Positions 2,279 through 63,229 of a DNA stretch of 64,000 nt are shown piece by piece. The stretch is from Gemmatimonadota bacterium (GTDB taxonomy: Bacteria > Gemmatimonadota > Gemmatimonadetes > Gemmatimonadales > GWC2-71-9), in NCBI GenBank assembly GCA_036679645.1, contig JAZDCY010000015.1, positions 58,504 through 122,503 of the forward strand. The letters run 5' to 3'. Positions within the stretch are counted from its first letter, which is position 1. Each line of letters starts with the position of its first letter. The notes beneath the pieces were generated by a model, which saw nothing but the letters and a program-made list of their open reading frames with translations, searched no databases and was not told where the DNA came from. A program made the position numbers and the translations under genes.

Positions 2279-2530
2279 ATGGTTAGAACTCAGATTCAGC
2301 TGACCGAGAGCCAGCACCGAGCCCTGAAGCATTGGGCCAACCGCCTGGGCATCTCGCTCGCCGAGGCCGTGCGGCGTTGCGTGGCGGAGCGGCTGGAGCG
2401 CGACGATACCTCCCTTGGCCGGGCCGCTCGGGTGCGCGAGGCGGAGGTCGTCATTGGGAAGTACGCTTCCGGCCGTTCGGACGTGGCCACGCATCACGAC
2501 GACTACCTGGCCGACGCGTTCTCCAGTTGA
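2279..2530 (+). CDS. CopG/RHH-family antitoxin (VapB-like)
   Basis: MVRTQIQLTE..ISLAEAVRRCV RHH signature; C-terminal SDVATHHDDYL; overlaps PIN gene start. Confidence 0.85.
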   Translation: MVRTQIQLTESQHRALKHWANRLGISLAEAVRRCVAERLERDDTSLGRAARVREAEVVIGKYASGRSDVATHHDDYLADAFSS

Positions 2531-2928
2531 GCGTCTTCGTCGATACGTCGGCGCTGTATGCGTTGCTGGACCGGGACGATGCTGGCCACGGTCGTATGGC
2601 AGAGGCCTGGGCCAAGTTGCTCTCGGGCCCCCGCCCGCTCATCACCAGCAATTACATACTGCTGGAGACCGCCGCGCTACTCCAGCGTCGGCTAGGCCTC
2701 GGCGCCGTGCATGATCTGGACGACTACCTGATGCCGCTGCTCCGGGTTTGGTGGATCACGGAGTCGACGCATCGTCGCGCCATGCGGCGCCTGCGGCGCC
2801 TGGACCGGCGCGGTGTGAGCCTCGTGGATTGCAGCAGCTTCGAGGTGATGGAAGCTGAGGCGATCCGGGACGCGCTCGCCCTCGACGAAGACTTCGCGGC
2901 GGAGGGATTCCGTCTGCTGCCAGCGTAG
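2527..2928 (+). CDS. vapC: PIN-domain toxin (VapC-like)
   Basis: TTG start overlapping antitoxin stop; VFVDTS, E, SLVDCSSF and LALDEDF acidic PIN motifs. Confidence 0.88.
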   Translation: MSVFVDTSALYALLDRDDAGHGRMAEAWAKLLSGPRPLITSNYILLETAALLQRRLGLGAVHDLDDYLMPLLRVWWITESTHRRAMRRLRRLDRRGVSLVDCSSFEVMEAEAIRDALALDEDFAAEGFRLLPA

Positions 2929-2979: not shown

Positions 2980-3126
2980 ATGAGCGGAATAACGGAACGC
3001 CTCGAGCACGGCCGCAAGGTCGCCCTCAAAGTCTTACGCCCAGAATCGGCCGCAGTCTTGGGCGCCGAGCGCGTGCAAAGGAGAGCTGTGGATCTGCTGC
3101 TCGAGGACCGCGGGGAAGGACGATGA
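2980..3126 (+). pseudogene. Chimeric remnant: deleted kinase N-terminus fused to the C-terminus of a Phd-type antitoxin
   Basis: Translates MSGITERL|EHGRKVALKVLRPESAAVLGAER|..AVDLLLEDRGEGR*; first parts match kinase paralogs, the end matches SAVDLLLEDRSDGR of 23937..24230. Confidence 0.75.
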
Positions 3127-3326
3127 AGTTCTGGGACACTTCGGCGATCCTGCCCCTCTTGGTGGACGAACCGCAGACGAAGGCCATGGTCGGGCTCATG
3201 GGGGACGATCCCGCGGCGGCCGTGGTGTTGGCGGACTTTGAACCCCGAACGTTGCCCCTCGTTACACTGGATGACCGGCTGGCCGCCGCCGCGCGGCGAG
3301 AAGGCTTCGAGGTGCTCGGCACATGA
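3123..3326 (+). pseudogene. Internally deleted PIN toxin (copy of 24227..24652)
   Basis: N- and C-terminal parts nearly identical to the 24227 PIN protein; the middle between two AAAV repeats is missing. Confidence 0.85.
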
Positions 3327-5638: not shown

Positions 5639-8269
5639 ATGCCTGAAGTTGACGATCGCCTCGCCGCCGCCCTTGCGGGCCGCTACACCATCGAGCGTGA
5701 ACTCGGCGCCGGTGGTATGGCGACGGTCTATCTCGCTGAAGATTTGAAACACAAACGCAAGGTCGCAGTCAAAGTGCTGCGGCCCGAACTCGCCGCGGTG
5801 CTCGGTGCCGAGCGGTTCGTGCAGGAGATCACCACCACAGCGAATCTGCAACACCCCCACATCCTCCCGCTGTTCGATTCGGGCGAAGCGGACTCTTTCC
5901 TTTATTACGTCATGCCGTACGTCGAAGGCGAGACGTTGCGCGACAAACTCAATCGCGAAACGCAACTCGGCATCGATGAAGCGGTGAGGATTGCGACCGA
6001 TGTGGCAGATGCGCTGGACTACGCGCACCGCAACGGAGTGATCCACCGCGACATCAAGCCCGAGAACATCCTGCTGCATGACGGCCGGCCAATGGTTGCC
6101 GACTTCGGCATTGCGCTGGCCGTGAGCGCGGCGGCGGGTGGGCGCATGACGGAAACCGGATTGAGCCTCGGCACTCCGCACTACATGTCGCCCGAGCAGG
6201 CGACCGCGGAGAAGGAGATCTCTGCCCGTTCAGACGTGTACTCGCTGGGCAGCGTGCTGTACGAGATGCTGACGGGGAATCCGCCGCACGTTGGGGCGAC
6301 GGCGCAGCAGATCATCATGAAGATCGTGACCGAAGATGCACAGCCGGTCACGAAGCTCAGGAAGTCAGTGCCGCCGCACGTGGCGGCGGCCGTGGCACAG
6401 TCGCTCGAGAAACTGCCGGCGGATCGGTTGGAGAGCGCGAAGGCCTTGGCCGAGGCGCTTGCCAATCCTGCATTCACCTCCGCGAGCACGGTGACGAGTG
6501 GAACGACGTCTGCCGTACCGACGTTCCGGCGTTCCGCCGTTTCGCTGACGCTCGCCGCCACGACGGTGTTTGCAGTCGCGCTCGCAGCCTGGGGCTGGTT
6601 GCGCTCGTCTCCGCAAGCGCCGCTGGGTCGGTTCAATATCGCGCTCGCCGAAGATCAGGCTGTGCAACCAGGGCGGGGGCCGCGCATCGCGGTCTCGCCG
6701 GATGGTTTGCGCTTCGTGTACGTGGGGCCGGGCGAAGGGGGTGGACAGCTCTGGGTGCGCGAACGCGACCAGCTTGCTGCGCGGCAGTTGGCGGGCACCG
6801 AAGGGGCCATCAGCCCGTTCTTCTCGCCGGACGGACGGCGCGTGGGCTTCTTCACCATCGCGCCGATGCGCCTCAAGACCGTCTCACTCGGCGGTGAACC
6901 ACCCGTGACGGTGGCGGACTCGGGTATCGACTGGGACGGCGGCGCTTGGGGGGCCGACGGGTACATCTACTCGGACAGCCCCAACGGTCTCGTCCGCGTT
7001 TCACAAGGCGGCGGCCGCGTCGAGCGCGTGACCCAACTCGACACTGTCCGGGGGGAGCAGAACCACAACTACCCCGCGATGCTCCCCAACGGGAAGGGTG
7101 CGTTGTTCATCGTCTTTCGCGGGGGCGTCCCCGACTACGAGGTCGCGGCAGTGGACCTCCGCACGGGACTCCATCACGTCCTAACCAAGGGTGTCTACGC
7201 CCGCTACGCCGCGCCGGGTTATCTCGTGTACGTCACGGCGACGGGGACCCTGATGGCGGTGGCGTTTGACGAGAGCAGCCTTCAGCTCACCGGCGAGGCC
7301 ACGGCATTGGCGGAAGGAATCAGCGTTCGCGGGTTTGGCTACGTCGACCTGGGACTCTCGCTCACCGGGACGCTGCTCTATTCGGGCGGCGACGCGAGTG
7401 CCGCCGTGACCGACCTGGTCTGGGTGAGCCGAAGCGGTGAGGTGCAGGTGATCGATTCCAGCGCGTACGACTCGCCGGTGATTTCACCAGACGGAAGCCG
7501 GGTCGCTGTCGCCGTGAGCACGCTGGGCGAACAGCAGATCTGGATTCGCCTCATGCCCGATGGACCGTCTTCCAAGTTGACGTTTGATGGCAGTGATAGT
7601 GGGCGGCCGTTCTTCTCGCCCGATGGCCGCATGGTCGGGTTCTACACGAGCCAGACGCGAACCCGGAGCCTGTTTGCCGCCCCGCCGGATACGCTGCTCG
7701 TCATCCCACGGGCCGTGTGGGAGGGGACATGGTCGCGGGACGGGCGGTGGCTCGTGTACCGGGAGAACAGCACGCCTGAGGCGAACCTGATGGCGGTGCG
7801 CACGGACGGAGATACGACACCCGTGACACTCGTAGCGACCGTGTTCAACGAGCGCTCACCGACGCTGTCGCCCGATGGGCAGTGGCTTGCGTACGCATCG
7901 GACGAATCCGGCATCACCGAGATCTACGTTCGTCCCTTCCCGGAGACGGCGCGGGCGAAGCGGCAGGTGTCGTTGCACGGCGGCACCGAGCCCCTGTGGT
8001 CCCACAGCGGGCGGGAGTTGTTCTACCGCAATCCGACCGGGGACATGGTGGCGGCCGCGATCACCACTCAGCCGGCCTTTGCGGTCGGGCGCCAGACGGT
8101 GCTGTTTGCTGGTTCGGACTACGCCGTGGACGACTCCCATCGGCAGTATGACGTCTCGCCCGATGACCGTCGCTTCCTCATGATTCGGGAACGAGGTGGC
8201 GGCGAGCGCGCGAATCTGATTCTGGTGGACAACTGGTTCCAGGAACTCATCGCCAAGGTGGGGCGGTGA
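5639..8269 (+). CDS. Ser/Thr kinase-TM-TolB/PD40 beta-propeller receptor
   Basis: Complete kinase motifs, TM (LTLAATTVFAVALAAWGW), SPDG blades, LVDNWFQEL C-terminus. Confidence 0.93.
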   Translation: MPEVDDRLAAALAGRYTIERELGAGGMATVYLAEDLKHKRKVAVKVLRPELAAVLGAERFVQEITTTANLQHPHILPLFDSGEADSFLYYVMPYVEGETLRDKLNRETQLGIDEAVRIATDVADALDYAHRNGVIHRDIKPENILLHDGRPMVADFGIALAVSAAAGGRMTETGLSLGTPHYMSPEQATAEKEISARSDVYSLGSVLYEMLTGNPPHVGATAQQIIMKIVTEDAQPVTKLRKSVPPHVAAAVAQSLEKLPADRLESAKALAEALANPAFTSASTVTSGTTSAVPTFRRSAVSLTLAATTVFAVALAAWGWLRSSPQAPLGRFNIALAEDQAVQPGRGPRIAVSPDGLRFVYVGPGEGGGQLWVRERDQLAARQLAGTEGAISPFFSPDGRRVGFFTIAPMRLKTVSLGGEPPVTVADSGIDWDGGAWGADGYIYSDSPNGLVRVSQGGGRVERVTQLDTVRGEQNHNYPAMLPNGKGALFIVFRGGVPDYEVAAVDLRTGLHHVLTKGVYARYAAPGYLVYVTATGTLMAVAFDESSLQLTGEATALAEGISVRGFGYVDLGLSLTGTLLYSGGDASAAVTDLVWVSRSGEVQVIDSSAYDSPVISPDGSRVAVAVSTLGEQQIWIRLMPDGPSSKLTFDGSDSGRPFFSPDGRMVGFYTSQTRTRSLFAAPPDTLLVIPRAVWEGTWSRDGRWLVYRENSTPEANLMAVRTDGDTTPVTLVATVFNERSPTLSPDGQWLAYASDESGITEIYVRPFPETARAKRQVSLHGGTEPLWSHSGRELFYRNPTGDMVAAAITTQPAFAVGRQTVLFAGSDYAVDDSHRQYDVSPDDRRFLMIRERGGGERANLILVDNWFQELIAKVGR

Positions 8270-8359
8270 CCGAAGTCGCTGTACGTCTCTCCGCCGCCCT
8301 GGCAGATCGCTACCGCATCGAGCGCGAACTATGCGTTGATTCGGAAGCTGAAGCTTCCG
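8266..8359 (+). pseudogene. Kinase 5' stub terminated by REP-like hairpin
   Basis: GTG overlapping upstream stop; encodes (M)TEVAVRLSAALADRYRIEREL, then GATTCGGAAGC-TGAA-GCTTCCG. Confidence 0.8.
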
Positions 8360-8388
8360 GTCGGCGCAGCACCGCCAAGCGTTCGTGA

Positions 8389-8422
8389 TTGTATGATCTG
8401 ACTAGTCAGATTATATTTCATC
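8389..8422 (+). promoter_or_regulatory. sigma70-like promoter with 16-bp palindromic operator for TA2
   Basis: TTGTAT 8389-8394, 17-bp spacer, TATATT 8412-8417; perfect palindrome ATCTGACTAGTCAGAT 8396-8411; ATG 8423. Confidence 0.7.
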
Positions 8423-8707
8423 ATGCCCGATACCTATTCACTGTACGAGGCCAAGGCCAAGCTCTCAGCGCTCGTCCGCCAGGTGCGGGAGGGAGCCCGG
8501 GTGATCATCACCGTGCACGGCCAGCCGGCCGCCGAGTTGCGACCGATCGGGCCGGAAGCGGAGGGGCTGGACGCGCGCCTCGACCGGCTGGAATCGCAGG
8601 GGGTCCTCGTGCGTCCGAAGGGGGACCGCAAGGACCTGAAGGACCTGCTCGAGCCGGTGGCCAAGCGTCCGGGTGCCCTGAAACGCTTCCTCGAGGAACG
8701 GGACTGA
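8423..8707 (+). CDS. Phd/YefM-family antitoxin
   Basis: YSLYEAKAKLSALVRQVREG..ITVHGQPAAELRP Phd signature. Confidence 0.9.
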   Translation: MPDTYSLYEAKAKLSALVRQVREGARVIITVHGQPAAELRPIGPEAEGLDARLDRLESQGVLVRPKGDRKDLKDLLEPVAKRPGALKRFLEERD

Positions 8708-8710
8708 TTT

Positions 8711-9088
8711 GTGCGCGCCTACGTCGATACCTCGTGCCTGGTGTCGGTGGCGCTGGATGAACGTGGCAGCGCGACGGTGCGGCGGCGTCTCGGTCGCTTC
8801 GAGGAACTGCTCGCCTCGAGCCTCCTCGAGGCGGAGCTGCGGTCGGCGCTCGTCCGCGAGGGAGTGAAGGAGGACCTGCCGGTCCTCGGCCGTCTGACGT
8901 GGATCATGCCGGACCGTCACCTGCGGCCGGAGATCGCGCGGGTGCTCTCCGCGGGATACCTTCGTGGCGCCGATTGCTGGCACCTCGCCACCGCGATGTA
9001 CGTGGCCAGGGAGCCGGCGTCGCTCGCATTCCTGACGCTGGACGAGCGGCAGGCTGCGGTCGCCTCGAAACTCGGATTCGCCACGTGA
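8711..9088 (+). CDS. vapC: PIN-domain toxin (VapC-like)
   Basis: AYVDTS, EAE, LRGADCWHLATA, FLTLDERQ. Confidence 0.88.
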   Translation: MRAYVDTSCLVSVALDERGSATVRRRLGRFEELLASSLLEAELRSALVREGVKEDLPVLGRLTWIMPDRHLRPEIARVLSAGYLRGADCWHLATAMYVAREPASLAFLTLDERQAAVASKLGFAT

Positions 9089-9247
9089 GTACCACCAAAC
9101 GTCTCACCACGGCGTGCCCTCGCCGACCGATACGCCACAGAGCGCGAACTTGGCGCCGATTCGGAAGCTGAAGCCTCCGCTCGGCGCTCCGCGGCTCGTC
9201 CTGAAGGACGCAGCGTCGTTCACGACGTGCCGGCGCTTCAGCGTCGG
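9085..9247 (+). pseudogene. Decayed kinase 5' stub followed by REP-like multi-hairpin element
   Basis: GTGAGTACC..GCCCTCGCCGACCGATACGCCACAGAGCGCGAACTTGGCGCC, then GATTCGGAAGCTGAAGCCTCCG (9158-9179) and CGTCC-TGAA-GGACG hairpin as in the 60170 and 63048 elements. Confidence 0.75.
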
Positions 9248-9256
9248 ATCACACTG

Positions 9257-11917
9257 ATGACGACGATCCCTGAACGCCTCTTTGCCGCCCTCGCCGACCG
9301 CTACCATCGAGCGCGAACTTGGCGCGGGTGGTATGGCCACCGTGTATCTCGCGGAGGATCTCAAGCACAAACGCAAGGTCGCGGTTAAGGTGCTACGTCC
9401 CGAACTTGCCGCCGTGCTCGGTGCCGAGCGGTTCGTGCAGGAGATCACCACCACCGCCAATCTTCAGCACCCGCACATTCTCCCGCTGTTCGACTCCGGT
9501 ACCGTCGACGGATTTCTTTTTTACGTCATGCCGTTCATCGACGGCGAGACGTTGCGCGACAAACTCGACCGCGAGACGCAGCTCGGCATCGATGAAGCAG
9601 TCAAGATCACGACGGAAGTGGCGAACGCGCTCGACTACGCGCATCGCAACGGCGTGATTCATCGTGATATCAAGCCCGAGAACATCCTGCTGCATGACAG
9701 CCGGCCGATGGTGGCGGATTTCGGGATCGCGTTAGCGGTGAGTGCCGCCGCGGGCGGGCGAATGACCGAGACCGGCATGAGCCTCGGCACGCCACATTAC
9801 ATGAGTCCCGAGCAGGCGACTGCCGAGAAGGAGATCACGGCGCGCTCGGACGTCTACTCGCTCGGCAGTGTGTTGTACGAGATGCTGACGGGAACTCCAC
9901 CGCACGTGGGTGCGTCGGCGCAGCAGATCATCATGAAGATCGTGACGGAAGAGGCGGCCCCTGTCACCAAGGTGCGGAAGGCCGTCCCAAACAACGTCGT
10001 GGCCGCCGTCGGACAGTCGTTGCAGAAGCTGCCCGCCGATCGGTTCGAGAGCGCCAAGGCGTTCGCCGAGGCGCTGAGCAATCCGCTGTTCGCCGCGCCG
10101 GGGACATTGCAAAGCATCGGCGCCGTCGCCGCGACCGGTGCCGCCACGGCGAACCGCCCGCTCTACGCCGCGCTGGCCCTCTCTGCGGTGCTGCTCGCGG
10201 TCGCCATGATCGGCTGGTTGCGGCCGGTGCCGGCGCCTGAGACCAGCAGGCAGCGCGTCGTCCTGTGGCAGAGTTCCCTGCGACAGCTGCTCGACCCCGG
10301 TATCCTGTACACAGGCACCCAGGTCGCCATCGCTCCGGACGGATCGAGCATCGTCTACGCCGATTCGAGCGGCGGCGCGCGTCTTCTGATGCACAAGACC
10401 AGAAACGAATCTTTTGCGACACCGATGGCCGGGACGGAGGGCGCGCTGTCACCGTTCTTCTCTCCCGACGGTCGATGGATCGGCTATCACGCTTCAGATG
10501 GCAAGTTCAGGAAGGTCCCCACCGACGGCGGCGGTTCCGTAACCCTTGTCGAGGATGCGGACATCACCTACGGCGCAGCCGCCTGGCTCGATGACGGCAC
10601 GATCGTGTACGCGGGGGACCAGGGGCTGACCCGGATCAACGCCGAGGGTGGCACCAGCCAGCCCGTCGAGCCCGACACAGCGCCAGGACGGCGTACCGTC
10701 CTGACGATTTCGCCGCTGCCGGGAAGCATGGGGGTCCTGTATACGGACTGCCCTGGCAATTGCGCCATCGAATCTGCCGTTCGCGTCTTCGACTTCAGGG
10801 CGGACAGCAGCAGGAGGCGAACGCCGCCGGGGCCTGGTATTCGCCCACCGGGCATATCCTCTACACCGACCGAGCCGGCGGGCTGTACGCCATGGGATTC
10901 GATCTCGACCGGTTGGAGGCAACCACAGGGCCGGTGCCGGTACTCGAGGACGTCGAGCCGGGCAGCTTCGCGATGTCGATGTCCGGGACCGCGATCTACT
11001 CGGTCGCGGCCGGAGGGAACGCGCCGGCGGAGTTGATGTGGGTGTCCCGTGACGGCAGCGCGGTGCCGTTGGACTCGACCTGGCGCGGCGATTTCCAGTA
11101 CCCGGCGCTGTCCCCCGACGGCGAGGCGCTCGCGGTGAGCGTGCGCGACGGGACGACTCAACTCTGGATCCGGCGATCCGATGGTACCCGGCAAAAGCTC
11201 ACGCAGGAGGGGACCGTCAATTGGAGACCGGCGTGGACACCCGATGGCCGCTCGGTGGTCTTCTCATCCAACCGAGGGGGCGGGGGAACGCGGGACGACT
11301 TCGATCTCTATGTGATGCCGGTTGACGGCAGCGTGATGGCCGAGTTGCTGCTGCATCACACCTTCGGCCTGTGGGAAGGAGAGTTTTCACGGGATGGACG
11401 GTGGCTGGTGGTGCGGGAGGATGATGCGGATGGCTCGTCCAATATACTTGGCCGGCGCCTCGATGGAGACACTGCGCTCGTGCCGTTGCTGGTCGATCGG
11501 GGCGAGACCTACCAGATCGCGCTGTCGCCGGATGGGCGCTGGATCGCCTACACCGGGCAAGTGACGGGGCAACCCGAAGTCTACATCGCTCCGTTCCCGG
11601 ACATCACGTCGACCCGGCTCATTTCGCGCGACGGCGGGGCCGAGCCGCGCTGGGCGCACAGCGGCCGGGAACTGTTCTACACGAGCGGTGACCGGTTCAT
11701 GGTCGTCGACGTCGCGCCAAGCCAGACGCTCACCTTGGGCTCCCCCCGGCCGCTCTTCTCGTTGGCGGGGTACCGCTCGGCACGTAACCGCCAGCAATAC
11801 GACGTGGCACCCGACGACCAGCATTTTATGATGATCCGAGATCAGCCCCGAGGCGCGAGCACCGTGGTCTACGTGGAGAACTGGTTTCCGGAGCTGCTAG
11901 CGAAGGTGCGTCGGTGA
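9257..11917 (+). pseudogene. Ser/Thr kinase-TM-beta-propeller gene with two frameshifts (or sequence errors)
   Basis: ATG 9257 MTTIPERLFAALADRY; CGCTACCATC vs paralog CGCTACACCATC (2-nt loss near 9303); second shift near 10810 joins ORFs 9282..11036 and 10760..11917. Confidence 0.82.
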
Positions 11918-12066
11918 GCGACACGCCTGACCGCCTCACCTCCGCCCTCGCGGACTGCTACACGATCGAGCGCGAACTCGGCGTTGATTCGGAAGCTGAA
12001 GCTTCTGCTGGGCCTTACGCGACTCGTCCTCGACGACGTTGGCTGGCGCGGCGTCGCTCACGACGC
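11914..12066 (+). pseudogene. Kinase 5' stub plus decayed REP-like element, in frame with downstream antitoxin
   Basis: MSDTPDRLTSALADCYTIERELG, then GATTCGGAAGCTGAAGCTTCTG and GCGTCGCTCACGACGC (cf. GCGTCGTTCACGACG near 9213). Confidence 0.78.
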
Positions 12067-12070
12067 AGCA

Positions 12071-12107
12071 TTGCCAATGTGACCATATATGACCATATTA
12101 TGACCAT
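12071..12107 (+). promoter_or_regulatory. sigma70-like promoter with three TGACCAT direct repeats (operator) for TA3
   Basis: TTGCCA 12071-12076, 17-bp spacer, CATATT 12094-12099; TGACCAT at 12080, 12090, 12101; ATG 12106. Confidence 0.65.
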
Positions 12108-12375
12108 GAAGGAAAAACGCGAAAAGTCCGTCAAGGTCGCGGAGCTCAAGGCCGGGTTGAGCGCGTATCTTCGTGCGGTCCGTAAGGGTCATGCGCTCAC
12201 CGTCTGCGACCGCGATACTCCCATCGCCCGATTGGTGCCATACCGTCGTGACGGCGGCGCGTTGTCCGTCCGGGAGCCCCTCCGTCCGCTCCATGAGGTT
12301 CCCCTCCCACCGCCACTCGGCCGCCCCGTGGATAGCTTGGCAGCGCTGCTCGAGGAACGGCAGTCTCCGCGGTGA
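12106..12375 (+). CDS. Phd/YefM-family antitoxin
   Basis: SVKVAELKAGLSAYLRAVRKG..TVCDRDTPIARLVP; start 12100 or 12106. Confidence 0.88.
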   Translation: MKEKREKSVKVAELKAGLSAYLRAVRKGHALTVCDRDTPIARLVPYRRDGGALSVREPLRPLHEVPLPPPLGRPVDSLAALLEERQSPR

Positions 12376-12788
12376 TCGCCTATCTCGATGCCTCGGTGGC
12401 ATTGCGCCTCGTCCTCGGCGAGCCGGACCGCATGACCGGGTGGGAGGGTTTCGACGCGGCGGTCGCCAGCGCCCTCACCGAGGTCGAATGCCTGCGCACG
12501 CTCGATCGCCTGCAGCAAATGGGATCGCTCGCGCCGGACGAAGTGGCGGAACGGCGCGCCGCCGTGTACCAGCTGCTCGAGTCCGTCGAGGTGGTTGACG
12601 TGGCCCGTACAATTCTGCGTCGTGCCTCCGAGCCGTTTCCCACGCCGCTCGGCACGCTCGATGCAATTCACCTTGCAACCGCCATTGCCTGGCGCGACGC
12701 GCGCACCGCGGAGTTGACCATGGCCACGCACGACAAGGCGCTCGCAACCGCCGCCCGCTCCGTGGGACTTGCTGTGATCGGTGGGTAA
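12372..12788 (+). CDS. vapC: PIN-domain toxin (VapC-like)
   Basis: IAYLDAS, EVE, LGTLDAIHLATA, ATHDKAL. Confidence 0.9.
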   Translation: MIAYLDASVALRLVLGEPDRMTGWEGFDAAVASALTEVECLRTLDRLQQMGSLAPDEVAERRAAVYQLLESVEVVDVARTILRRASEPFPTPLGTLDAIHLATAIAWRDARTAELTMATHDKALATAARSVGLAVIGG

Positions 12789-15492
12789 CATTCCCGACCG
12801 CCTCGTTGCCGCCCTCGCCGACCGCTACACCATCGAGCGCGAGCTCGGCGCGGGTGGTATGGCCACGGTCTATCTGGCGGAAGACCTCAAGCACAAACGC
12901 AAGGTCGCCGTCAAAGTGCTGCGCCCCGAACTCGCCGCCGTGCTCGGCGCCGAGCGTTTCGTGCAGGAGATCAAGACGACCGCCAACCTACAGCACCCGC
13001 ACATCCTGCCGCTGTTCGACTCGGGCGAGGAGGATGGGTTCCTCTACTACGTGATGCCGTTCATCGACGGCGAGACGTTGCGCGACAAGCTCGACCGCGA
13101 GACGCAGCTCGGGGTCGAGGAAGCCGTCAAGGTCACAACCGACATTGCCGACGCGCTCGATTACGCACACCGGGCGGGCGTGGTCCATCGTGACATCAAG
13201 CCCGAGAACATCCTGCTGCACGACGGCCGGCCCATGGTGGCTGACTTTGGCATCGCGCTGGCCCTGAGCGCGGCGGCGGGCGGGCGCATGACGGAGACCG
13301 GACTCTCGCTCGGCACGCCGCACTACATGAGTCCCGAGCAGGCGACCGCCGAGAAGGAGATCACCGCCCGCTCCGACGTTTACTCGCTCGGCAGTGTGCT
13401 GTATGAGATGCTCACCGGCGAGCCGCCCCATATGGGCAACTCGGCCCAGGCGATCATCATGAAAATCGTGACCGAGGAAGCGCAGCCGGTCACGAGGCTC
13501 CGGAAGTCGGTGCCCCCCAATGTGGCCGAGGCCACCGCGACAGCGCTTGAGAAGCTGCCGGCGGATCGCTTCGAGAGCGCCGCCAAGTTCGCCGAGGCAT
13601 TGCGCGACCCGAACTATGCGAGCGCGGCGTCGTCGTCGTCCTTTGCGACCTCACCGACGAGAGCGGGAAACCGGCTGACGATTGCGATGACGGTGGTGGC
13701 AGCGCTGCTGGCCGTCGTGGCTTGGCGGGCCATTGCGACACGACCGAAGGCCGTGCCGGGGCAGGTATTGCGAACCACCATCGGCCTGTCCGACAGCGTT
13801 CGGCTGCCGTCGCCGACGTTCGGCTCACGGGTTGCGATCTCGAACGATGGCTCTCGCATAGTGTTCGTTGGAGGCGGCGGGCAACGCCAGCTCTGGCTCC
13901 GGATGCGCGATCGCCTCGAGGCCGTTCCGCTTCCGGGAACCGGGGGAGCACACGCGCCATTCTTTTCGCCCGATGGGATGCGCGTAGGGTTCTTCACGGT
14001 CGAGCCCCCGGCGCTCAAGGTGGTGTCGCTCGATGGTGGCCTTCCGGTGACCATCGCAGACTCCGGGCTCTACGCCAACAGCAGTCTCTTGTCCGCGGGC
14101 GCGACATGGGGGATGGACGGGTCGATCTATGCAGGCTACCTCAGTGGCGTCGTGCGCATTCCGCAGAGTGGAGGGTCGTGGACCCCGGTCTCGACCAGTG
14201 ACAGCACCACGGACGAAAAGGGCCACACGCCGACCGATGTGTTGCCCAACGGACGCGGCCTCATCATCAGGGTCGCGCACACTCCGAACACGATGGAGTC
14301 CCTGTACGAGGTTGCCGCGCTCGACCTGCGCACGGGGACGCACCGCGTGCTGGCGCGTGGCGTATACGCACGCTACGTCCCTCCGGGCTATCTGGTGTTC
14401 GCTCGCGCAGATGGCGTGCTCATGGCTGCGCCGTTTGATCAGGACCGGCTCGAACTCATCGGGCCGGAGGTCACGCTTGGCAGTGGGACGGACGGCGGCG
14501 GGTTCCGGGAGTTCGCGCTCACTGGCGACGGGGCGCTGGTGTACGTGGACAGGGTAGGTGCGGAGGAGACATCGGAACTCATCTGGGTGCGGCGCGATGG
14601 GTCAACGGAGGCGCTCGACCCATCCTGGCGCGCGAATTTCGAGAGTGCGTCGGTCTCCCCCGACGGGACACAGCTCGCCGCCGGATTGCTCACGAGGGAA
14701 GGTGCGGAGGTGTGGATCGCGCAGCTGCCACGCGGCCCGCGCTACAGGCTCACGGTCGACGGACCCATTAGCTACCGGCCGACCTGGCTGTCCGACGGTC
14801 AGACCGTGGTATTTCGGTCGCTGAGCGAAAGTACCGGCAGATTCGAACTCTTCGCGAAACGTGCGGACGGTATCGGCGAGCAGGAGCGCCTCGCCTTCGA
14901 CGCCCGCTCGATATCAACGGGATTCGTGTCGCCCGACGGGCAGTGGAGGATCTACCGCACCGACGCCACCGAGGCGGGGCGCGGCGACATACTGGCGATG
15001 CGCGCAGGTGACACCGTGGTGATGCCGCTCGTCGCCACGACGGCCGAGGAGCGTTTCCCCGCGCTCTCGCCCGATGGCCGCTGGCTCGCGTACCGATCCG
15101 ATGTGGGCGGGTCGCATGACGTGTGGGTGCGTCCGTTCCCGAATGTCGCTGACGGCCGGTGGCAGGTCTCCGCGGGTGGCGGCAGCGAGCCCGTGTGGTC
15201 ACGCAGCGGCAGGGAACTGTTCTTCATCACGCCCGATAACGAACTCGTGGCCGCGAGCGTTACGACCGAGCCGACGTTCGCCGTGCGTGAGCGACGCGTG
15301 CTCTTCCGGCGCCCGGCCACGACGCTGCGGCACATCGCGATAGCCGCCTACGACGTCACCCCGGACGATCAGCAGTTCGTCATGATTCGCTCGGTGAGCG
15401 GGCGCGTCGTTGGGCCGATGATCGGCGTGGAGGAACGGATCGTGTTTGTCGAGAACTGGATCGAGGAGCTGCGGGAGAGAGTGGGACGGTAG
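12781..15492 (+). CDS. Ser/Thr kinase-TM-TolB/PD40 beta-propeller receptor
   Basis: Complete kinase motifs, TM, SPDG blades, FVENWIEEL; GTG start overlaps PIN 3' end. Confidence 0.92.
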   Translation: MGNIPDRLVAALADRYTIERELGAGGMATVYLAEDLKHKRKVAVKVLRPELAAVLGAERFVQEIKTTANLQHPHILPLFDSGEEDGFLYYVMPFIDGETLRDKLDRETQLGVEEAVKVTTDIADALDYAHRAGVVHRDIKPENILLHDGRPMVADFGIALALSAAAGGRMTETGLSLGTPHYMSPEQATAEKEITARSDVYSLGSVLYEMLTGEPPHMGNSAQAIIMKIVTEEAQPVTRLRKSVPPNVAEATATALEKLPADRFESAAKFAEALRDPNYASAASSSSFATSPTRAGNRLTIAMTVVAALLAVVAWRAIATRPKAVPGQVLRTTIGLSDSVRLPSPTFGSRVAISNDGSRIVFVGGGGQRQLWLRMRDRLEAVPLPGTGGAHAPFFSPDGMRVGFFTVEPPALKVVSLDGGLPVTIADSGLYANSSLLSAGATWGMDGSIYAGYLSGVVRIPQSGGSWTPVSTSDSTTDEKGHTPTDVLPNGRGLIIRVAHTPNTMESLYEVAALDLRTGTHRVLARGVYARYVPPGYLVFARADGVLMAAPFDQDRLELIGPEVTLGSGTDGGGFREFALTGDGALVYVDRVGAEETSELIWVRRDGSTEALDPSWRANFESASVSPDGTQLAAGLLTREGAEVWIAQLPRGPRYRLTVDGPISYRPTWLSDGQTVVFRSLSESTGRFELFAKRADGIGEQERLAFDARSISTGFVSPDGQWRIYRTDATEAGRGDILAMRAGDTVVMPLVATTAEERFPALSPDGRWLAYRSDVGGSHDVWVRPFPNVADGRWQVSAGGGSEPVWSRSGRELFFITPDNELVAASVTTEPTFAVRERRVLFRRPATTLRHIAIAAYDVTPDDQQFVMIRSVSGRVVGPMIGVEERIVFVENWIEELRERVGR

Positions 15493-15546
15493 AGAACGGG
15501 ACCGCGACGGTGCTTTTTCGTTACGGGCTACGAGCAGGAGGCAAGT

Positions 15547-15611
15547 AATTGCAGATTACTGATTGCAGATTTCAGATTGTAGGTCTGTCGATAGATCTGC
15601 AATCTGCAATT
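15547..15611. repeat. 7-nt-periodic palindromic intergenic repeat, family A
   Basis: (ATTGCAG)-like units followed by (CTGCAAT)-like units, forming an imperfect long hairpin. Confidence 0.85.
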
Positions 15612-15630
15612 CGCTGAAGGGTCTAGTGAC

Positions 15631-18338: not shown

Positions 18339-18400
18339 CGATTTGCGATCTGCGTCAATCGCAAATCGCCGATCGCAAATTGGCAATCGCCAATCGTTCT
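18339..18400. repeat. 7-nt-periodic palindromic intergenic repeat, family B
   Basis: CGATTTG/CGATCTG units followed by CAAATCG/CCAATCG units; related copy at 24687. Confidence 0.75.
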
Positions 18401-18417
18401 TGCACTCGAGAGCTGAC

Positions 18418-21066
18418 ATGAGCGGAATTACGGAGCGCCTGACTAACGCCATCGCCGACAGGTACAAGATCGAGTCTCACCTCGGCCAGGGCGGGATGGC
18501 GACAGTCTATCTAGCCCACGACCTGAAGCACGATCGCAAGGTCGCGCTGAAAGTGCTGCGTCCAGAACTGGCCGCCGTGATCGGCGCCGAGCGTTTCCTC
18601 CAGGAGATCAAGGTCACGGCCAACCTGCAGCATCCCCACATCCTGCCGCTGCACGATTCGGGGGAAGCGGATTCCTTTCTCTATTACGTCATGCCGTACG
18701 TGGAGGGGGACACGCTGCGGGACAAACTGGACCGCGAGAAGCAACTCGGCGTGGACGACGCGATTGCGATCACGCAGGGCATTGCCTCGGCGCTCGATTA
18801 CGCGCACCGGCAGAACGTGATCCACCGGGATATCAAGCCGGAAAACATCCTGCTGCACGACGGCCAGGCGCTGGTGGCCGATTTCGGGATCGCGCTTGCC
18901 GTGAGCCAGGCGGGCGGGACGCGCATCACGGAGACCGGTCTGTCGCTTGGCACGCCGCACTACATGAGTCCGGAACAGGCGATGGGCGATCGCGAGTTGG
19001 ATGCGCGGAGCGACGTCTACTCGCTCGGTGCCGTGTTGTATGAGATGCTGACCGGCGAGCCGCCATACACGGGCTCCACCGCGCAGGCGATCGTGGCGCG
19101 TGTGATCACGGAGGACCCACGTCCGCTCAGCTTGCAACGGCGCACGGCGCCTCCGCACGTGGCCGATCCGGCGGACCGGTTTACCTCCGCGGCCAGTTTT
19201 GCCGAGGCGCTGGTCACGCCCGGTTACGTCACGCCGAGTCACACACGGACCGGCACCGCGGCCGCGGCGCCACCACGCCGCCGCGACTGGCAGAAGTTGG
19301 TGTTGGCCGCCGCGCTCGTCGTGATGACAGCTCTCGCCTCTTGGGCCATCTGGCGGCCGGGCCCGCCGGCTACGGTTGCCCGGCTCGATCTCGACCTCGG
19401 CGACATTGTGAAGCGCAGCGGTCTCGGCGACGTGGTGGTCTCCCCGGACGGTTCGATGCTCGCGGTGGCAGGTGTCGTGGGCAGTGAGTCCGGGATCTAC
19501 GTGCGTCGCATTGGCGAGGCGGATTTCCAGCTACTCCCCGGAACAGAGAACGGTTCAACGCCGGCCTTCTCGCCCGACGGCCAGTGGATCGTGTTTCGGA
19601 ACAATGCACAGAGGACGATCGTGAAGGTGGCGGTATCGGGAGGCGGGGTGCTCACCCTGCTCGACCGCGGCACGATCAATCCCTTCTTGCCGCACTGGGG
19701 TGCGGAGGCGACCATCGTACTAACTGGCCCCCAGGGCACACACGTGCTCTCGGCCGGCGGCGGTACCCCGCGACGCCTCGACAACGCCCTGTTCGGCCGG
19801 GGTCCCATTCATCTTTTGCCCGACGGTTCGGGCATTCTCGGCAACGCTCGAGGCGGTGGTGTTGCGCTCTATGACATGCAGGCCGACTCGATGATCCAGT
19901 TGCTCGAGGACGGACGCAATGCCACCTACGTAGCGTCAGGCCACCTGTTGTACGTCCCCGGCACCGGCGGCCTGTTCGCCGTGCCGTTCGACCTGGGCAG
20001 CCACCGTATCACGGGCCCGGCCGTGCGCGTGCTGGATCGTGTCGCCTCCGCCGGCAGTCAGCGCGGGTTCAGCGTGTCACGTGGCGGCACGATCGTGTAT
20101 CTGGAGGGCCAGGCGAGTGGGGGCGGCGGGGGAAGGGCGACGCGTCTCCTGGTCATGGACCGCTCCGGAGGCGCGGATACGCTGCGGCTTCCGTCGGCTC
20201 GGCGCCTCTGGCCCCGGTATTCCCCAGACGGCCGCACCATCGTGTATGAACTGGTCAACGCCGAGCGCAACAACAACACCGACATCTACACGTTCGACCT
20301 CGTCACCGGCACGAGCACGCAGATCACCTTCGACGGCGACAATGAGGACCCGATGTGGTCACCGGACGGCACGCGCATCCTGTTTGACGTCGAACAACCC
20401 GATAGTGATTCCACCCTGGGGGAGGACCTGTTCATCAAGCCGGCGGACAACAGTAGTAGCCAACAACGGATACTGAGCCGCCCCCGGGATCAGTGGCCAG
20501 AGGCATGGCTGGCAGATGACCGCATCGTGTTCGGCACCAATGAGGCGGGAAACCGGGACCTCTTCACCTTCGCGCTCGCGGACACCAGTACGGTCCAGCC
20601 CTATCTCCAGGCGCCGTGGCAGGAGAGGGATTTGGCGCTGTCGCCGGACGGGGAGCTGGCGGCGTTCGTGTCGAGCGAGACCGAGATACCAGAGATCTGG
20701 CTGCGCGACTTTCCGACGCCGGAAGGGAAATGGCGCGTGTCGTTTGGCGGCGGCTTTCATCCGCGATGGTCACCGGACGGCGGCACGCTCTACTTCTGGC
20801 ACTATGGCCCCGGCCTCGATTCGTTGATGGCCGCGCGGATCGATCGCACGCCGCAGGTCACGGTGCGACAACCGGAATTGGTCCTCGTACACGACGTCAT
20901 CTTCCAGGGGTGGGATCTACACCCCGACGGCGAGCGGTTTCTAATCGTTGAGAACGAAGGCGCGGGCACTCCAACGCCGGCCACCGCCGCGGGTCAGCCC
21001 GTCGAGCGCTACCTGGTGGTGCTCAACTGGTTTAAGGAATTGCGCCAGCGGATGGCGGCACAGTGA
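18418..21066 (+). CDS. Ser/Thr kinase-TM-TolB/PD40 beta-propeller receptor (short in-frame deletion in kinase C-lobe)
   Basis: Start MSGITERL; kinase motifs; PPHVADPADRF vs PPHVAAAVHKALSKLPADRF in paralogs; TM; propeller. Confidence 0.9.
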   Translation: MSGITERLTNAIADRYKIESHLGQGGMATVYLAHDLKHDRKVALKVLRPELAAVIGAERFLQEIKVTANLQHPHILPLHDSGEADSFLYYVMPYVEGDTLRDKLDREKQLGVDDAIAITQGIASALDYAHRQNVIHRDIKPENILLHDGQALVADFGIALAVSQAGGTRITETGLSLGTPHYMSPEQAMGDRELDARSDVYSLGAVLYEMLTGEPPYTGSTAQAIVARVITEDPRPLSLQRRTAPPHVADPADRFTSAASFAEALVTPGYVTPSHTRTGTAAAAPPRRRDWQKLVLAAALVVMTALASWAIWRPGPPATVARLDLDLGDIVKRSGLGDVVVSPDGSMLAVAGVVGSESGIYVRRIGEADFQLLPGTENGSTPAFSPDGQWIVFRNNAQRTIVKVAVSGGGVLTLLDRGTINPFLPHWGAEATIVLTGPQGTHVLSAGGGTPRRLDNALFGRGPIHLLPDGSGILGNARGGGVALYDMQADSMIQLLEDGRNATYVASGHLLYVPGTGGLFAVPFDLGSHRITGPAVRVLDRVASAGSQRGFSVSRGGTIVYLEGQASGGGGGRATRLLVMDRSGGADTLRLPSARRLWPRYSPDGRTIVYELVNAERNNNTDIYTFDLVTGTSTQITFDGDNEDPMWSPDGTRILFDVEQPDSDSTLGEDLFIKPADNSSSQQRILSRPRDQWPEAWLADDRIVFGTNEAGNRDLFTFALADTSTVQPYLQAPWQERDLALSPDGELAAFVSSETEIPEIWLRDFPTPEGKWRVSFGGGFHPRWSPDGGTLYFWHYGPGLDSLMAARIDRTPQVTVRQPELVLVHDVIFQGWDLHPDGERFLIVENEGAGTPTPATAAGQPVERYLVVLNWFKELRQRMAAQ

Positions 21067-21068
21067 GT

Positions 21069-21154
21069 GATTGCAGATTACTGATTGCAGATTTCAGATG
21101 TCAGGTTTATCGATAGATCTGCAATCACTATTCTGCAATCTGCAATCTGCAATT
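21069..21154. repeat. 7-nt-periodic palindromic repeat, family A
   Basis: GATTGCAGATTACTGATTGCAGATTTCAGAT...ATCTGCAATCACTATTCTGCAATCTGCAATCTGCAATT. Confidence 0.88.
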
Positions 21155-21173
21155 CGCTGAATGGACTCATGAT

Positions 21174-23807
21174 ATGAGCGACATAACAGAGCGTCTCTCG
21201 TCAGCGATAGCTGACCGTTACAAGATCGAGTCGCACCTCGGTCAGGGCGGGATGGCGACCGTCTATCTCGCTCACGACCTGAAACACGACCGCAAGGTGG
21301 CGCTCAAGGTCTTGCGCCCCGAGTTGGCTGCGGTCATCGGCGCCGAGCGTTTCTTGCAGGAGATCAAGGTCACGGCCAATCTGCAGCATCCCCACATCCT
21401 GCCGCTGCACGACTCGGGCGAGGCCGATTCGTTCCTCTATTACGTCATGCCGTACATCGAGGGCGAATCGCTGCGCGACAAGATCGACAAGGAGAAACAA
21501 CTCGGCATTGACGACGCGGTCGATGTTGCGCGCTCCGTTGCGTCCGCGCTCGACTACGCGCACCGCCAGGGCGTGATCCATCGCGACATCAAGCCGGAGA
21601 ACATCCTCATTCACGATGGGCAGGCGCTCGTTGCGGATTTTGGTATTGCGCTCGCCATCAGTGAGGCCAGCGGCAATCGCCTGACCGAAACGGGGCTCAG
21701 TATTGGCACGCCGCACTACATGAGCCCCGAGCAGGCAATGGGCGATCGCGAGCTGGACGCACGCTCCGACGTGTACAGTCTCGGTGCCATGATGTACGAA
21801 ATGCTGACCGGCGATCCGCCGTATCAGGGGAGCACGGCGCAGGCAATCGTTGCCAAGGTCATTACGGAGAAGGCGCCGCCGGTGACGGCGGCACGAGACA
21901 CGACCCCACCACATATCGCGGCGGCCGTGCACAAGGCGTTGAGCAAGCTGCCGGCGGATCGCTTCGCGAGCGCTGCCGCGTTCGCGGACGCACTCACGCG
22001 GCCGGGCGCGATACCGCTCACGGTCGCCGCCGAGGCAGGACCGGAAGCGTTGCGGAAGCGTACAGTTCCCGCCGTCGGTGCGATTGCCGCGGCCGCGCTC
22101 ATCGCTGCCATCGCCTTGCTCGTAGGACGAATGACGGCTCCCGAACCGGCGCCGCCATCGAACCCGGCGTTCCGCTCCGAGATCGTTCTGCCCGAAGCAA
22201 TGGGCGTCGCCCAGACGGGGGGGCAACTCATAGCGATCTCTCCCGATGGGAGCCGGATCGTGTATGTGGGTACCGCTGAAGGTGGGGGGACGCAGCTGTT
22301 CCTTCGGCGAGTGGGGGATCTGGCAATCGTACCGCTTCCAGGCACGGAAGGCGTGTCGAACCCTTTCTTTTCACCCGACGGCGAGTGGATTGGATTTGAG
22401 CTGGACAACGAACTCAAGAAGATTGCGGTGGCCGGCGGACCGCCGCTGACGATTGCGCGGGTCAATCCTTCGCGCCCCCACTGGGGGCAGAACGACACCA
22501 TCATCGATGCGAGTGGCTCCGAGCCACTGTACACGGTGCCTGGCGCTGGCGGGATTCCTGTACCGGTTCCGGTGGCTGATACGACGCTCGACCTGCGGTC
22601 GCCGCACATGCTTCCCGGCGGCGGGGCCGCCCTGGTCACGATCTTTGCCGGTCTCGAGGGATCGCAGATCGGTCTCGTCGATCTCGAAACCGGCGCGATC
22701 GACACGCTCGTATCCGAGGGTGTACGCCCGGTGTACCTGTCCACCGGACACGTGCTCTACGGTCACGCGAGCGGCGGTGTTTTCGTGGTGCCCTTCGATG
22801 TGGAACGTCGGGTCGTCACCGGTTCGCCGACGCCCGTGTTGGACAACGTACGGGTCTTCGGTGGCGGGCCCGTCCAGTTCGAGGTCGCGCAGAACGGGAC
22901 GGCGGTTTACCTGACGGGGCAGGGAGGTCAGGGCCGGGAGTTGGTGACGGTGGACATGGCGGGGCGCGAGGAGCCGCTGGCGCTCGAGCCGGAACGGTAC
23001 GCCTCACCGCGCTTCTCGCCCGATGGCGGGCGTATCGCGCTGACCATGCAGGGTGATGCAACCGACGTATACGTCTTCGAGATGGCTCGCGGGACCCTGT
23101 CGCGACTCACCTTCCAGGGAAACAACCTCTACCCTGTGTGGTCGCCCGACGGTCGCTACGTCATGTTCGGCTCCCGCCTCGAGGGCACGTTGGACCACGA
23201 CATCTTTCGCAAGGTGGCAGACGGGAGCGGCCCACCTGAGCTGGTGCTCCAGGCCGAGTACGCAAATTTTGCGCAGTCGTGGGCCGATGACGGGACCATC
23301 CTCTATCGCACGCGCAGCCCGGGGGGACTCGATCTTAGCGTGCTTCAATCGGGGGATTCCACGGGCACGCCATATCTCGCCGAGGAGTGGAATGAGTACG
23401 CGGGAGCTGTTTCCCCTGATGGGCGCTGGGTGGCCTACGTCTCCAACGAGACCGACGCTAATGAAGTCTACGTCCGGGCGTTCCCGGAGCCTGCGGGACG
23501 ATGGCAGGTGTCGCAGGGAGGCGGGAGCGAGCCCATCTGGGCACCGGACGGCCGCACCATCTACTACTGGCGCGGACCAGCGGAACTGGTCGCGGCTAGG
23601 GTCCAAACCCAGCCATCATTTGCGGTGCTCGGTGAAGAAACTGTGCTACAAGGTCGCTACGAGAGATTCTTCCTTTATCCGCAGTACGACATCCATCCCG
23701 ACGGCGACCGCTTCGTCATGATCAAGAACGTAGCGGGCGATGCTGTGGGAGGGATCACGGTTGTCGTGAATTGGTTTGAGGAGCTGCGGGAACGGTTGGG
23801 GAGGTGA
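21174..23807 (+). CDS. Ser/Thr kinase-TM-TolB/PD40 beta-propeller receptor
   Basis: Complete kinase motifs, TM, SPDG blades, VVVNWFEEL. Confidence 0.93.
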   Translation: MSDITERLSSAIADRYKIESHLGQGGMATVYLAHDLKHDRKVALKVLRPELAAVIGAERFLQEIKVTANLQHPHILPLHDSGEADSFLYYVMPYIEGESLRDKIDKEKQLGIDDAVDVARSVASALDYAHRQGVIHRDIKPENILIHDGQALVADFGIALAISEASGNRLTETGLSIGTPHYMSPEQAMGDRELDARSDVYSLGAMMYEMLTGDPPYQGSTAQAIVAKVITEKAPPVTAARDTTPPHIAAAVHKALSKLPADRFASAAAFADALTRPGAIPLTVAAEAGPEALRKRTVPAVGAIAAAALIAAIALLVGRMTAPEPAPPSNPAFRSEIVLPEAMGVAQTGGQLIAISPDGSRIVYVGTAEGGGTQLFLRRVGDLAIVPLPGTEGVSNPFFSPDGEWIGFELDNELKKIAVAGGPPLTIARVNPSRPHWGQNDTIIDASGSEPLYTVPGAGGIPVPVPVADTTLDLRSPHMLPGGGAALVTIFAGLEGSQIGLVDLETGAIDTLVSEGVRPVYLSTGHVLYGHASGGVFVVPFDVERRVVTGSPTPVLDNVRVFGGGPVQFEVAQNGTAVYLTGQGGQGRELVTVDMAGREEPLALEPERYASPRFSPDGGRIALTMQGDATDVYVFEMARGTLSRLTFQGNNLYPVWSPDGRYVMFGSRLEGTLDHDIFRKVADGSGPPELVLQAEYANFAQSWADDGTILYRTRSPGGLDLSVLQSGDSTGTPYLAEEWNEYAGAVSPDGRWVAYVSNETDANEVYVRAFPEPAGRWQVSQGGGSEPIWAPDGRTIYYWRGPAELVAARVQTQPSFAVLGEETVLQGRYERFFLYPQYDIHPDGDRFVMIKNVAGDAVGGITVVVNWFEELRERLGR

Positions 23808-23936: not shown

Positions 23937-24230
23937 ATGAAATCCGAGTCAATTTCGAGCGCCAAGAACCGGCTGAGCGCGCTCATCAAACAGGTCCAAA
24001 ACGGCGAGCCGGTGGTCATCACCGATCGCGGGGTCCCGGTGGCCGAGCTCGTACCGGTACGGCTCGGGACCGGGGTCCCCGCTCGGATCCTCGGCCTCGC
24101 GCAGGAAGGGCTGGTCAGGCTACCCGAAGTCTCGCCCGATACCGAGTGGCTCGACCTCCCGCGACCGTGCCTGACCCCCGGTCCCAGCGCGGTGGACCTG
24201 CTGCTCGAGGACCGGAGCGATGGGCGATGA
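23937..24230 (+). CDS. Phd/YefM-family antitoxin
   Basis: SISSAKNRLSALIKQVQNGEPVVITDRGVPVAELVP. Confidence 0.9.
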   Translation: MKSESISSAKNRLSALIKQVQNGEPVVITDRGVPVAELVPVRLGTGVPARILGLAQEGLVRLPEVSPDTEWLDLPRPCLTPGPSAVDLLLEDRSDGR

Positions 24231-24652
24231 GGTTCTGGGACACGTCGGCGATACTGCCCCTCTTAGTGGACGAACCGCAGACGAAGGCCATGGTTGAGCT
24301 GATGGGGGACGATCCCGCGGCAGCCGTGTGGTGGCTGACGTCCGTGGAGTGCTGGTCGGCACTGGCGCGTCTGGAACGGGAGGGGCGACTCACGGAGGCC
24401 GGTGTCACCGCGGCGGCGGCGCTGCTGCGGGAGGCGGCGCGGCGATGGACGGAGATCCCTCCCATCGAACGCGTCCGCGACCAGGCCTCCCGCCTGCTGC
24501 GGCTCCACCCGCTCCGGACCGGCGACGCTCTACAACTGGCGGCGGCGGTGGTGTTGGCGGACTTTGAACCCCGCACGTTGCCATTGGTCACCCTCGACCT
24601 CCGGTTGGCTGCGGCTGCCCGGCGCGAGGGATTCGAGGTGTTGGGGGGCTGA
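24227..24652 (+). CDS. vapC: PIN-domain toxin (VapC-like)
   Basis: ATGA overlap; MRFWDTS, VEC, LRTGDALQLAAA, VTLDLRL. Confidence 0.9.
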   Translation: MRFWDTSAILPLLVDEPQTKAMVELMGDDPAAAVWWLTSVECWSALARLEREGRLTEAGVTAAAALLREAARRWTEIPPIERVRDQASRLLRLHPLRTGDALQLAAAVVLADFEPRTLPLVTLDLRLAAAARREGFEVLGG

Positions 24653-60148: not shown

Positions 60149-60169
60149 ATGAACGAGATCACCGGCGTT

Positions 60170-60351
60170 CCCGCGCTAAAGCACGGGCTCGGCGCTGCGC
60201 GGCGCGTCCTGAAGGACGCGAGGGCGGAGAGCCCTTCAGGGCCCACCGCGGCCCGCAGGGCCGCGCCGAGCCGGGGCTTCAGCCCCGGAACCGCGCACGG
60301 AGGCGAATGGCGGCGCGTCAGCCCCGGAACACCGCGCAAAGGCAGATGCCA
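60170..60351. repeat. REP-like multi-hairpin element, copy 1
   Basis: Hairpins CCCGCGC-TAAA-GCACGGG, GCGTCC-TGAA-GGACGC, GCCC-TTCA-GGGC, CCGGGGC-TTCA-GCCCCGG; near-identical to 63048..63229. Confidence 0.85.
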
Positions 60352-63006: not shown

Positions 63007-63047
63007 CCCGCGCGCGGAGGGAATGCTCGAGCGGAACCGGCGTTGTT

Positions 63048-63229
63048 CCCGCGCTGAAGCGCGGGCTCGGCGCTGTGCGGCGCGTCCTGAAGGACGCGTG
63101 GGCGGAGAGCCCTTCAGGGCCCACCGCGGCCCGCAGGGCCGCGCCGAGCCGGGGCTTCAGCCCCGGAACGGGGCGCGGGGGCCAACGCCGCGTCCTCAGC
63201 CCCGGAACACCGCGCAAAGGCAGATGCCA
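63048..63229. repeat. REP-like multi-hairpin element, copy 2
   Basis: Same 182-bp distance to the next kinase ATG and same hairpins as the 60170 copy. Confidence 0.85.

Follow-up and report, generated by a model that had tools for sequence, protein, structure and literature searches.

The stretch of DNA analysed here (the window, 64 000 nt of the Gemmatimonadota assembly GCA_036679645.1, contig JAZDCY010000015.1, positions 58 504 to 122 503) carries a tandem array of serine/threonine kinase genes with PD40 propeller or TPR tails, in which three kinase gene starts break off at a short palindromic hairpin, close to toxin-antitoxin (TA) gene pairs (Table 1). The kinase domains of the array are 64-84% identical to kinase C at the protein level, with a conserved segment in every open reading frame (ORF). 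The TA genes are adjacent Phd antitoxin and PIN toxin genes of the type II (VapBC-like) kind. An initial annotation had described kinase stubs starting at 8266, 9085 and 11914 with a GTGA overlap and ending after the ERELx codons, and this was confirmed: each stub is 72-73 nt long, starts with a GTG that overlaps an upstream TGA, and ends one further codon beyond ERELx.

Table 1. Features around the three stub junctions and at two further elements of the window.
Feature	Positions	Strand	Remarks
Kinase A, Ser/Thr kinase with PD40 beta-propeller	5639..8269	+	intact ORF
Stub 1	8266..8337	+	24 kinase-start codons; GTGA overlap with kinase A stop
Palindromic element, left arm only	8338..8367	+	7-bp stem, TGAA loop, degenerate CTCGGC tail
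TA1 upstream region, likely a putative operator/promoter of TA1	8385..8422	+	palindrome 8392-8415, kept before TA1 homologues elsewhere
Phd/YefM antitoxin 1	8423..8707	+	PF02604, TIGR01552 above cut-off
PIN (VapC-like) toxin 1	8711..9088	+	PF01850
Stub 2	9085..9157	+	kinase start overlapping PIN1 stop; frameshifted internally
Two-armed element, nearly complete	9158..9250	+	right arm without inner part
Kinase B pseudogene	9257..11917	+	frameshifts near 9302 and 10812; ORFs 9282-11036, 10760-11917
Stub 3	11914..11985	+	24 kinase-start codons overlapping kinase B stop
Element left arm and inner hairpins	11986..12068	+	without right arm
Region 5' of TA2 with a sigma-70-like promoter match and three TGACCAT repeats	12071..12107	+	consensus match only
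Phd/YefM antitoxin 2	12100..12375	+	TIGR01552 above cut-off; PF02604 just under cut-off
PIN toxin 2	12372..12788	+	PF01850
Kinase C	12781..15492	+	intact; start overlaps PIN2 end
Complete element, another subfamily	60167..60289	+	3' of a 6-codon kinase stub (MNEITG)
Complete element	63045..63167	+	same subfamily as 60167..60289

The three junctions are real, with corrections in detail. Stubs 1 and 3 are followed, as first described, by different Phd-PIN pairs, whose PIN proteins are 30% and Phd proteins 29% identical. All three stub starts overlap the preceding gene, which for stub 2 is PIN1 and not a kinase, and the supposedly full-length kinase gene after stub 2 is broken by two frameshifts. 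The hairpins at the three stubs share the sequence GATTCGGAAGCTGAAGC, at 8338, 9158 and 11986 (0.18 copies expected; none of 100 shuffles reached three), but the remnants are of unequal length (30, 93 and 83 nt), each lacking some part of the element. In the whole 4.05-Mb genome (G000) GATTCGGAAGCTGAAGC occurs four times, the fourth copy lying on contig C9 and likewise 3' of a degenerate kinase start. Duplication of one ancestral event, the alternative offered at the outset, holds for the junction sequence, which is common to the window copies, C9 and two other genomes (G131 and G210), but not for the stubs: stubs 1 and 3 are identical at 10 of 24 codons, with five synonymous and nine non-synonymous differences, mostly in the variable N-terminus. 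At two stub-element loci of the genome, C9:132900-133400 and C75:53800-54350, a related antisense gene is present, frameshifted on C9, which resembles a Uma2/DUF820 nuclease gene.

The hairpin of the window is the left arm of an element of ∼115-125 bp composed of two inverted arms and inner hairpins. An arm consists of a 7-bp stem, a TGAA or TAAA loop and a CTCGGC tail, and at its foot one strand has (G/A)TT and the opposite strand CCGAG. A search pattern containing no pairing rule gave 31 matches in the genome, of which 28 paired at six or more of the seven stem positions, with 17 different stems; in a control, mismatched arms paired in 41 of 272 combinations. The genome contains 36 arm loci, and the proposed link of the motif to kinase starts was borne out by the 14 of these that lie within 300 bp of one. 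An element profile gave 27 matches at E<1e-3, 12 of them within 300 bp of a kinase start, compared with 2.3% of random positions. The general arm pattern matched 13 of 40 relatives and was abundant in three. The 17-mer with up to one mismatch was found in none of 40 relatives, the copies in G131 and G053 lying outside that set. Five tandem copies of a subfamily with a CGAA loop were observed away from kinases at C38:48930-49810.

Four matches to Y1 transposases were found in the genome, and those on contigs C50 and C53 are bracketed by arms of the same family, as are tnpA genes in G002 and G157; the C53 gene lies directly 5' of a kinase gene. All three TnpA proteins tested passed the IS200 TnpA model NF033573 (58-65 bits, cut-off 55) and all three failed the model NF047646 for REP-associated tyrosine transposases (RAYT; REP, repetitive extragenic palindromic), with 26-32 bits against a cut-off of 80. 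The proteins carry HUH and Y---Q motifs, the latter in all five that were aligned. Thus the hairpins form a REP-like family of extragenic inverted doublets flanking IS200-type HUH transposase genes, both parts of which had been foreseen, but the transposase does not score as a RAYT. Of 200 family genomes, 69 carry homologues of the C53 protein; arms of the same kind are present at most of the 29 tnpA loci fetched from relatives. The three tnpA copies of the genome are divergent (C50 and C53 are 46% identical) and have no adjacent tnpB. The third IS200-like copy (L006, C92:24812-25700) is followed by a different palindrome family, CCCCGGGC-GTCA-GCCCGGGG.

The layout of stub, element and fresh kinase start was found in eight genomes of seven genera (G000, G131, G210, G299, G205, G221, G157 and G043). 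The search covered at least 400 family genomes with limited sensitivity, and junction counts are lower bounds because only two candidates per genome were scored. Further sites of this layout occur in G000, and in G131 the junction is present twice in tandem (stub-element-stub-element-kinase). In G157 the transposase gene lies inside an element at a stub junction, the one such case among the 29 fetched tnpA loci. A strict junction pattern matched one locus in genome contigs and one in metagenome contigs, the latter judged a chance match as it had no kinase or element profile match; a looser pattern matched six places in 5 of 401 genomes, comprising three true junctions, two elements without a kinase and one chance match. 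The window arm sequence lies 3' of stubs at four sites in G000 and in G131 and G210, and other subfamilies also occupy such sites; it is also found without a detected kinase start in G053 (the exact arm), G208 and on contig C51 of G131. The three copies of the window are degraded examples of this layout.

A single specific breakpoint, as initially proposed, was not upheld, as the junctions fall at codons ∼6-10, 23-27 and 29-30 and 186 arms showed no conserved target motif past the (G/A)TT foot, beyond position -3. In a rough element tree at least three label changes were required for the kinase-adjacent state, and window copies 2 and 3 grouped, with weak support, with elements from C9, G210, G131 and G043. 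The tree is built from few columns, and four elements appear in it twice, once in each orientation; it is used only to state that there is more than one kinase-adjacent lineage. The label changes and the stub comparison together indicate that junctions arose several times, and that the window junction sequence appears to be one inherited lineage carried on different paralogue starts.

The initial annotation had read the arrangement as a cassette of stub, hairpin, TA pair and new kinase, delivered to a fixed breakpoint. Putative TA promoters do lie directly 3' of two of the three window copies, on one contig of a related strain (run X2) a stub-2-like arm is separated from TA2 by 917 nt of other sequence, and an arm adjoins TA1 homologues in G131 and, as a remnant, in G001. 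Against this, arms and PIN genes are seldom neighbours: a PIN gene is close to 4 of the 36 arm loci, and an arm occurs within 600 bp of 3 of 26 PIN genes. In the junctions of the seven other genomes no TA pair lies between element and kinase start, and three other TA pairs in or next to the array have no arm. Both TA-adjacent window copies lack a right arm, so the TA pair is not bracketed. Delivery of TA cargo by the element is thus largely refuted, and we regard the cassette model as very improbable. Nine of the 26 PIN genes are followed within 700 bp by a kinase start on the same strand, compared with 87 of 6172 long-ORF ends. Homologues of the TA1 toxin occur in 24 of 150 family genomes, with a kinase start within 700 bp at 7 of 25 such loci, and one locus (L093) has the order kinase-stub-TA-kinase, no element being found there. 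The proximity of PIN genes to kinases, the scarcity of arms and L093 indicate that TA pairs use the same gene junctions on their own, and they are likely to be separate passengers rather than repeat cargo.

Five more antitoxin-PIN pairs or PIN genes were observed in or beside the kinase arrays of the window (2279-2928, 23937-24652, 27612-28315, 30960-31654 and ∼51320-51675), none with a hairpin arm within 600 bp. At ∼2980-3326 a deleted kinase start is fused to a Phd tail followed by an internally deleted PIN gene; this remnant is related to the pair at 23937-24652, and its PIN stop overlaps the next kinase start. Elsewhere in the genome, at C7:211760-212300, a 48-codon kinase stub is fused to a Phd antitoxin and followed by an apparent toxin gene, adjoining an antisense tRNA-like stretch and an element.

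At most junctions the reading frame of the stub has no stop codon within the hairpins and ends at, or beside, the start codon of the next gene. Thus the MNEITG stub ORF at the 60167 element stops on the next kinase start, and at the 63045 element an ORF bridges the gap between the stop of the preceding kinase and the start of the one that follows. In a strict test, with frames anchored at the true stop codons upstream, bridging was seen in 8 of 9 kinase-kinase gaps that contain an element (4.4 expected, P 0.004), compared with 5 of 9 that lack one (4.6 expected); one gap of 13-40 nt was left out, and 12 of 31 kinase-kinase junctions overlap or adjoin directly. In a curated set, with frames taken from kinase homology or the stub start, 10 of 12 junctions were coupled against 4 expected, or 6 of 7 with one junction per genome. 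A count on heuristic frames (17 of 21 coupled) was not relied on. The open coupled frames of the curated and strict sets suggest that the leftover start acts as a translational bridge across the hairpins. The literature on REP hairpins and translation yielded nothing usable.

For the observed junctions, element family, links to tnpA and kinase starts and coupled frames, the reading we favour, at a probability of roughly 0.55, is that a few junctions were formed, were spread among ∼100 kinase paralogues by homologous recombination and were kept where coupling survives. First, the left foot of an element already in front of a kinase start would have become linked to the 5' part of a second paralogue, probably through a cut by TnpA, since this foot is nearly always intact. 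With the conserved kinase 5' region then on both sides, the block could be moved or copied by recombination. Long duplications would be lost, while short stubs would persist and erode in frame, and TA pairs would arrive separately at the same junctions, in the window replacing the right half of the element.

Several points weigh against this reading. None of the window copies is cleanly coupled: stub 1 remains open through the hairpin but stops at 8385-8387, ∼36 nt short of Phd1; stub 2 carries an internal frameshift, and in its homologous frame it would be fused to kinase B; and the frame of stub 3 passes through the element and enters Phd2 in frame, producing a fusion. The curated set was picked after the translations had been seen, and left out C4b, G157c and the tnpA copy, all of which fail, as well as G157a, which has no start codon; with C4b included the count is 10 of 13. 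Many copies are related and not independent, so the P values overstate the significance. Insertion and deletion give an identical end structure and are not told apart, and the cluster of breakpoints at codons 23-30 in three element subfamilies is explained only loosely by recombination alone. Finally, no empty-site allele or circle was shown by the contigs of the three sequencing runs X1-X3.

This breakpoint cluster is among the points in favour of targeted transposition, in which TnpA would excise a single-stranded circle of element and downstream kinase start and place it within the glycine-loop codons of a different kinase gene, whose own start would become the stub while the incoming start restored the gene. 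At least three element subfamilies have junctions in codons 23-30, a tandem arrangement occurs in G131 and a tnpA-bearing copy at the same site in G157, and what precedes an element inside an array is nearly always a coupled start, seldom a bare kinase stop. In Escherichia coli, TnpA-REP cuts on both sides of REP over more than 400 nt and carries out strand transfer (PMC3333891, available text). The other junctions at codons 6-10, the missing target motif, the arms without a detected kinase start in G053, G208 and G131 C51, and the single stub junction among 29 tnpA loci do not fit. Nor are the stubs closest to their own downstream kinase, ranking 2-9 of 79 in similarity. A 48-nt repeat in G157 was considered as a target duplication and rejected as proof of one on account of these ranks and of its wide sharing, 44 nt being common to 7 of 15 listed kinase starts of a genome whose paralogues are homogenized. 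We therefore consider targeted transposition unlikely. The corresponding view, that a domesticated IS200-like transposase and its hairpin doublets would form a start-swapping device of Gemmatimonadota kinase arrays, moving element and kinase start into the glycine-loop codons of paralogues, healing the target and leaving a translated bridge, is equally doubtful.

Stubs also exist independently of the element. The genome gave 119 kinase 5' matches at E<1e-3; at E<1, 40 of 137 had no long kinase match following, many of these being weak, and clear stubs with varied ends lie far from any hairpin. Plain deletion could account for the stub-element junctions as scars, a whole kinase having once stood between stub and element and lost its body, with no role for TnpA or translation. 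Of the many element-free stubs in the genome, several likewise stop close to the glycine loop, fragments of kinase and TA genes are scattered through the arrays (as at ∼2980-3326), and in X2 the contig through stub 1 departs from the window at 8327 and the sequence upstream of TA1 differs, which fits a gene lost here. Deletion alone would not explain the intact left foot at nearly every junction, the restriction of all element-adjacent stubs to 30 codons or fewer of ∼900, or coupling above the frame null, and it is accordingly judged quite unlikely as the general origin.

The junctions vary between strains. Contigs from X1 are identical to the window over the three junctions; as X1 may be the source of the assembly, this is not independent support. 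X2, from another study, is about 92-96% identical to the window, and the different sequence at its junctions indicates that these are points of exchange. The X3 strain, from the same study as X1, has a stub 1 shorter by 57 nt, in frame; short contigs from related strains have a different local order, and a related strain carries seven extra bases at 10812, the kinase B frameshift site. The related strains' contigs offered no clean empty site of the kind suggested in the initial annotation, and the kinase A orthologue of G002, tried as a candidate, was uninformative as an unrelated gene follows it. Kinase A of the window lacks, at 7677, 18 in-frame bases present in X2.

A second kind of inter-kinase spacer was observed in the window (15510-15630, 18340-18420, 21066-21174 and 24700-24790), reused at several junctions and consisting of imperfect palindromes of short repeats of the TTGCAGAT/ATCTGCAA and ATCGCCAAT types. 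At 32866-35330 genes for a short Cys-rich secreted-type peptide, a thioredoxin-like protein and a large lipoprotein-like protein lie in a row, labelled by eye.

The system was compared with REP/REPIN-RAYT systems (REPtrons, TnpA-REP), as described in the available text of Ton-Hoang 2012 (PMC3333891), Quentin 2018 (PMC6006769) and Bertels 2017 (PMC5581495). It resembles them in its many extragenic inverted hairpin doublets and in a single-copy Y1 HUH tnpA bracketed by them. It differs in an enzyme that scores as IS200-type and not as RAYT, in the absence of GT[AG]G at the hairpin foot, which here is (G/A)TT/CCGAG, in arms with a CTCGGC tail and a second hairpin, and in the large share of copies that lie between a gene-start remnant and a paralogue start and are read through in frame. 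IS200/IS605 elements (TnpA class 1) share the short HUH and Y---Q transposase scoring above the NF033573 cut-off and the subterminal hairpins, but the ends of the present element are inverted copies of one arm, with no fixed target motif and no adjacent tnpB. TnpA-Y1 class 3 has, in the available part of PMC6006769, Y----Q and an extended N-terminal core, unlike the Y---Q found here. The foot of class 3 is described as CnGA, on atypical hairpins; in the present arms CCGA lies one base 5' of the stem on the strand that reads GCCGAG, at most a candidate counterpart. The behaviour of the system thus resembles that of a REPtron, but it does not pass the RAYT and GTAG tests, and an IS200-like enzyme is combined with ends that are not of the IS type.

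The proposed movement of junctions resembles that in the lpl cluster of Staphylococcus aureus, where, according to the available text of Tsuru and Kobayashi 2008 (PMC2568036), recombination uses a conserved part of each ORF, and the unit that moves reaches from the end of one gene across the intergenic region into the start of its neighbour. In the kinase array, by contrast, it is the 5' region of the genes that is conserved, and the cargo between genes consists of a mobile hairpin element or a TA pair, leaving a start remnant. TA pairs distributed across a long, recombination-prone gene array also recall the TA cassettes of sedentary chromosomal integrons (PMC11551772, available text), although the present array is made of paralogues; by analogy with superintegrons, the TA pairs may stabilize it. 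The attC core boxes RYYYAAC...GTTRRRY were absent from both strands of all four elements inspected, and of 11 matches to the integron integrase model TIGR02249 in the genome none exceeded the cut-off and none lay on the array contig. An integron-integrase-like gene in two frames (228 and 175 bits, each under the cut-off) was observed at C86:51824-52734.

A description of the stub-element-start layout, or of these repeats in Gemmatimonadota, was not found in the literature covered, from which most subscription journals were absent. What is new here is that the frame of the stub usually continues without interruption through the hairpins and ends on the start codon of the following gene. These data also carry a warning, since breakage at the same site in an array of paralogues need not mean site-specific insertion. 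If the start-swapping device were true, receptor kinases and passengers would be reordered without an integrase while operon coupling was kept. It is an open question why hosts retain transposases of the REP type, and hairpins at the borders between genes of a very large receptor-kinase family, found in several genera and showing open, coupled frames as a sequence signature of selection, provide a natural case bearing on it. It becomes testable whether gene-start remnants are kept in such arrays to hold translational coupling across a structured insert.

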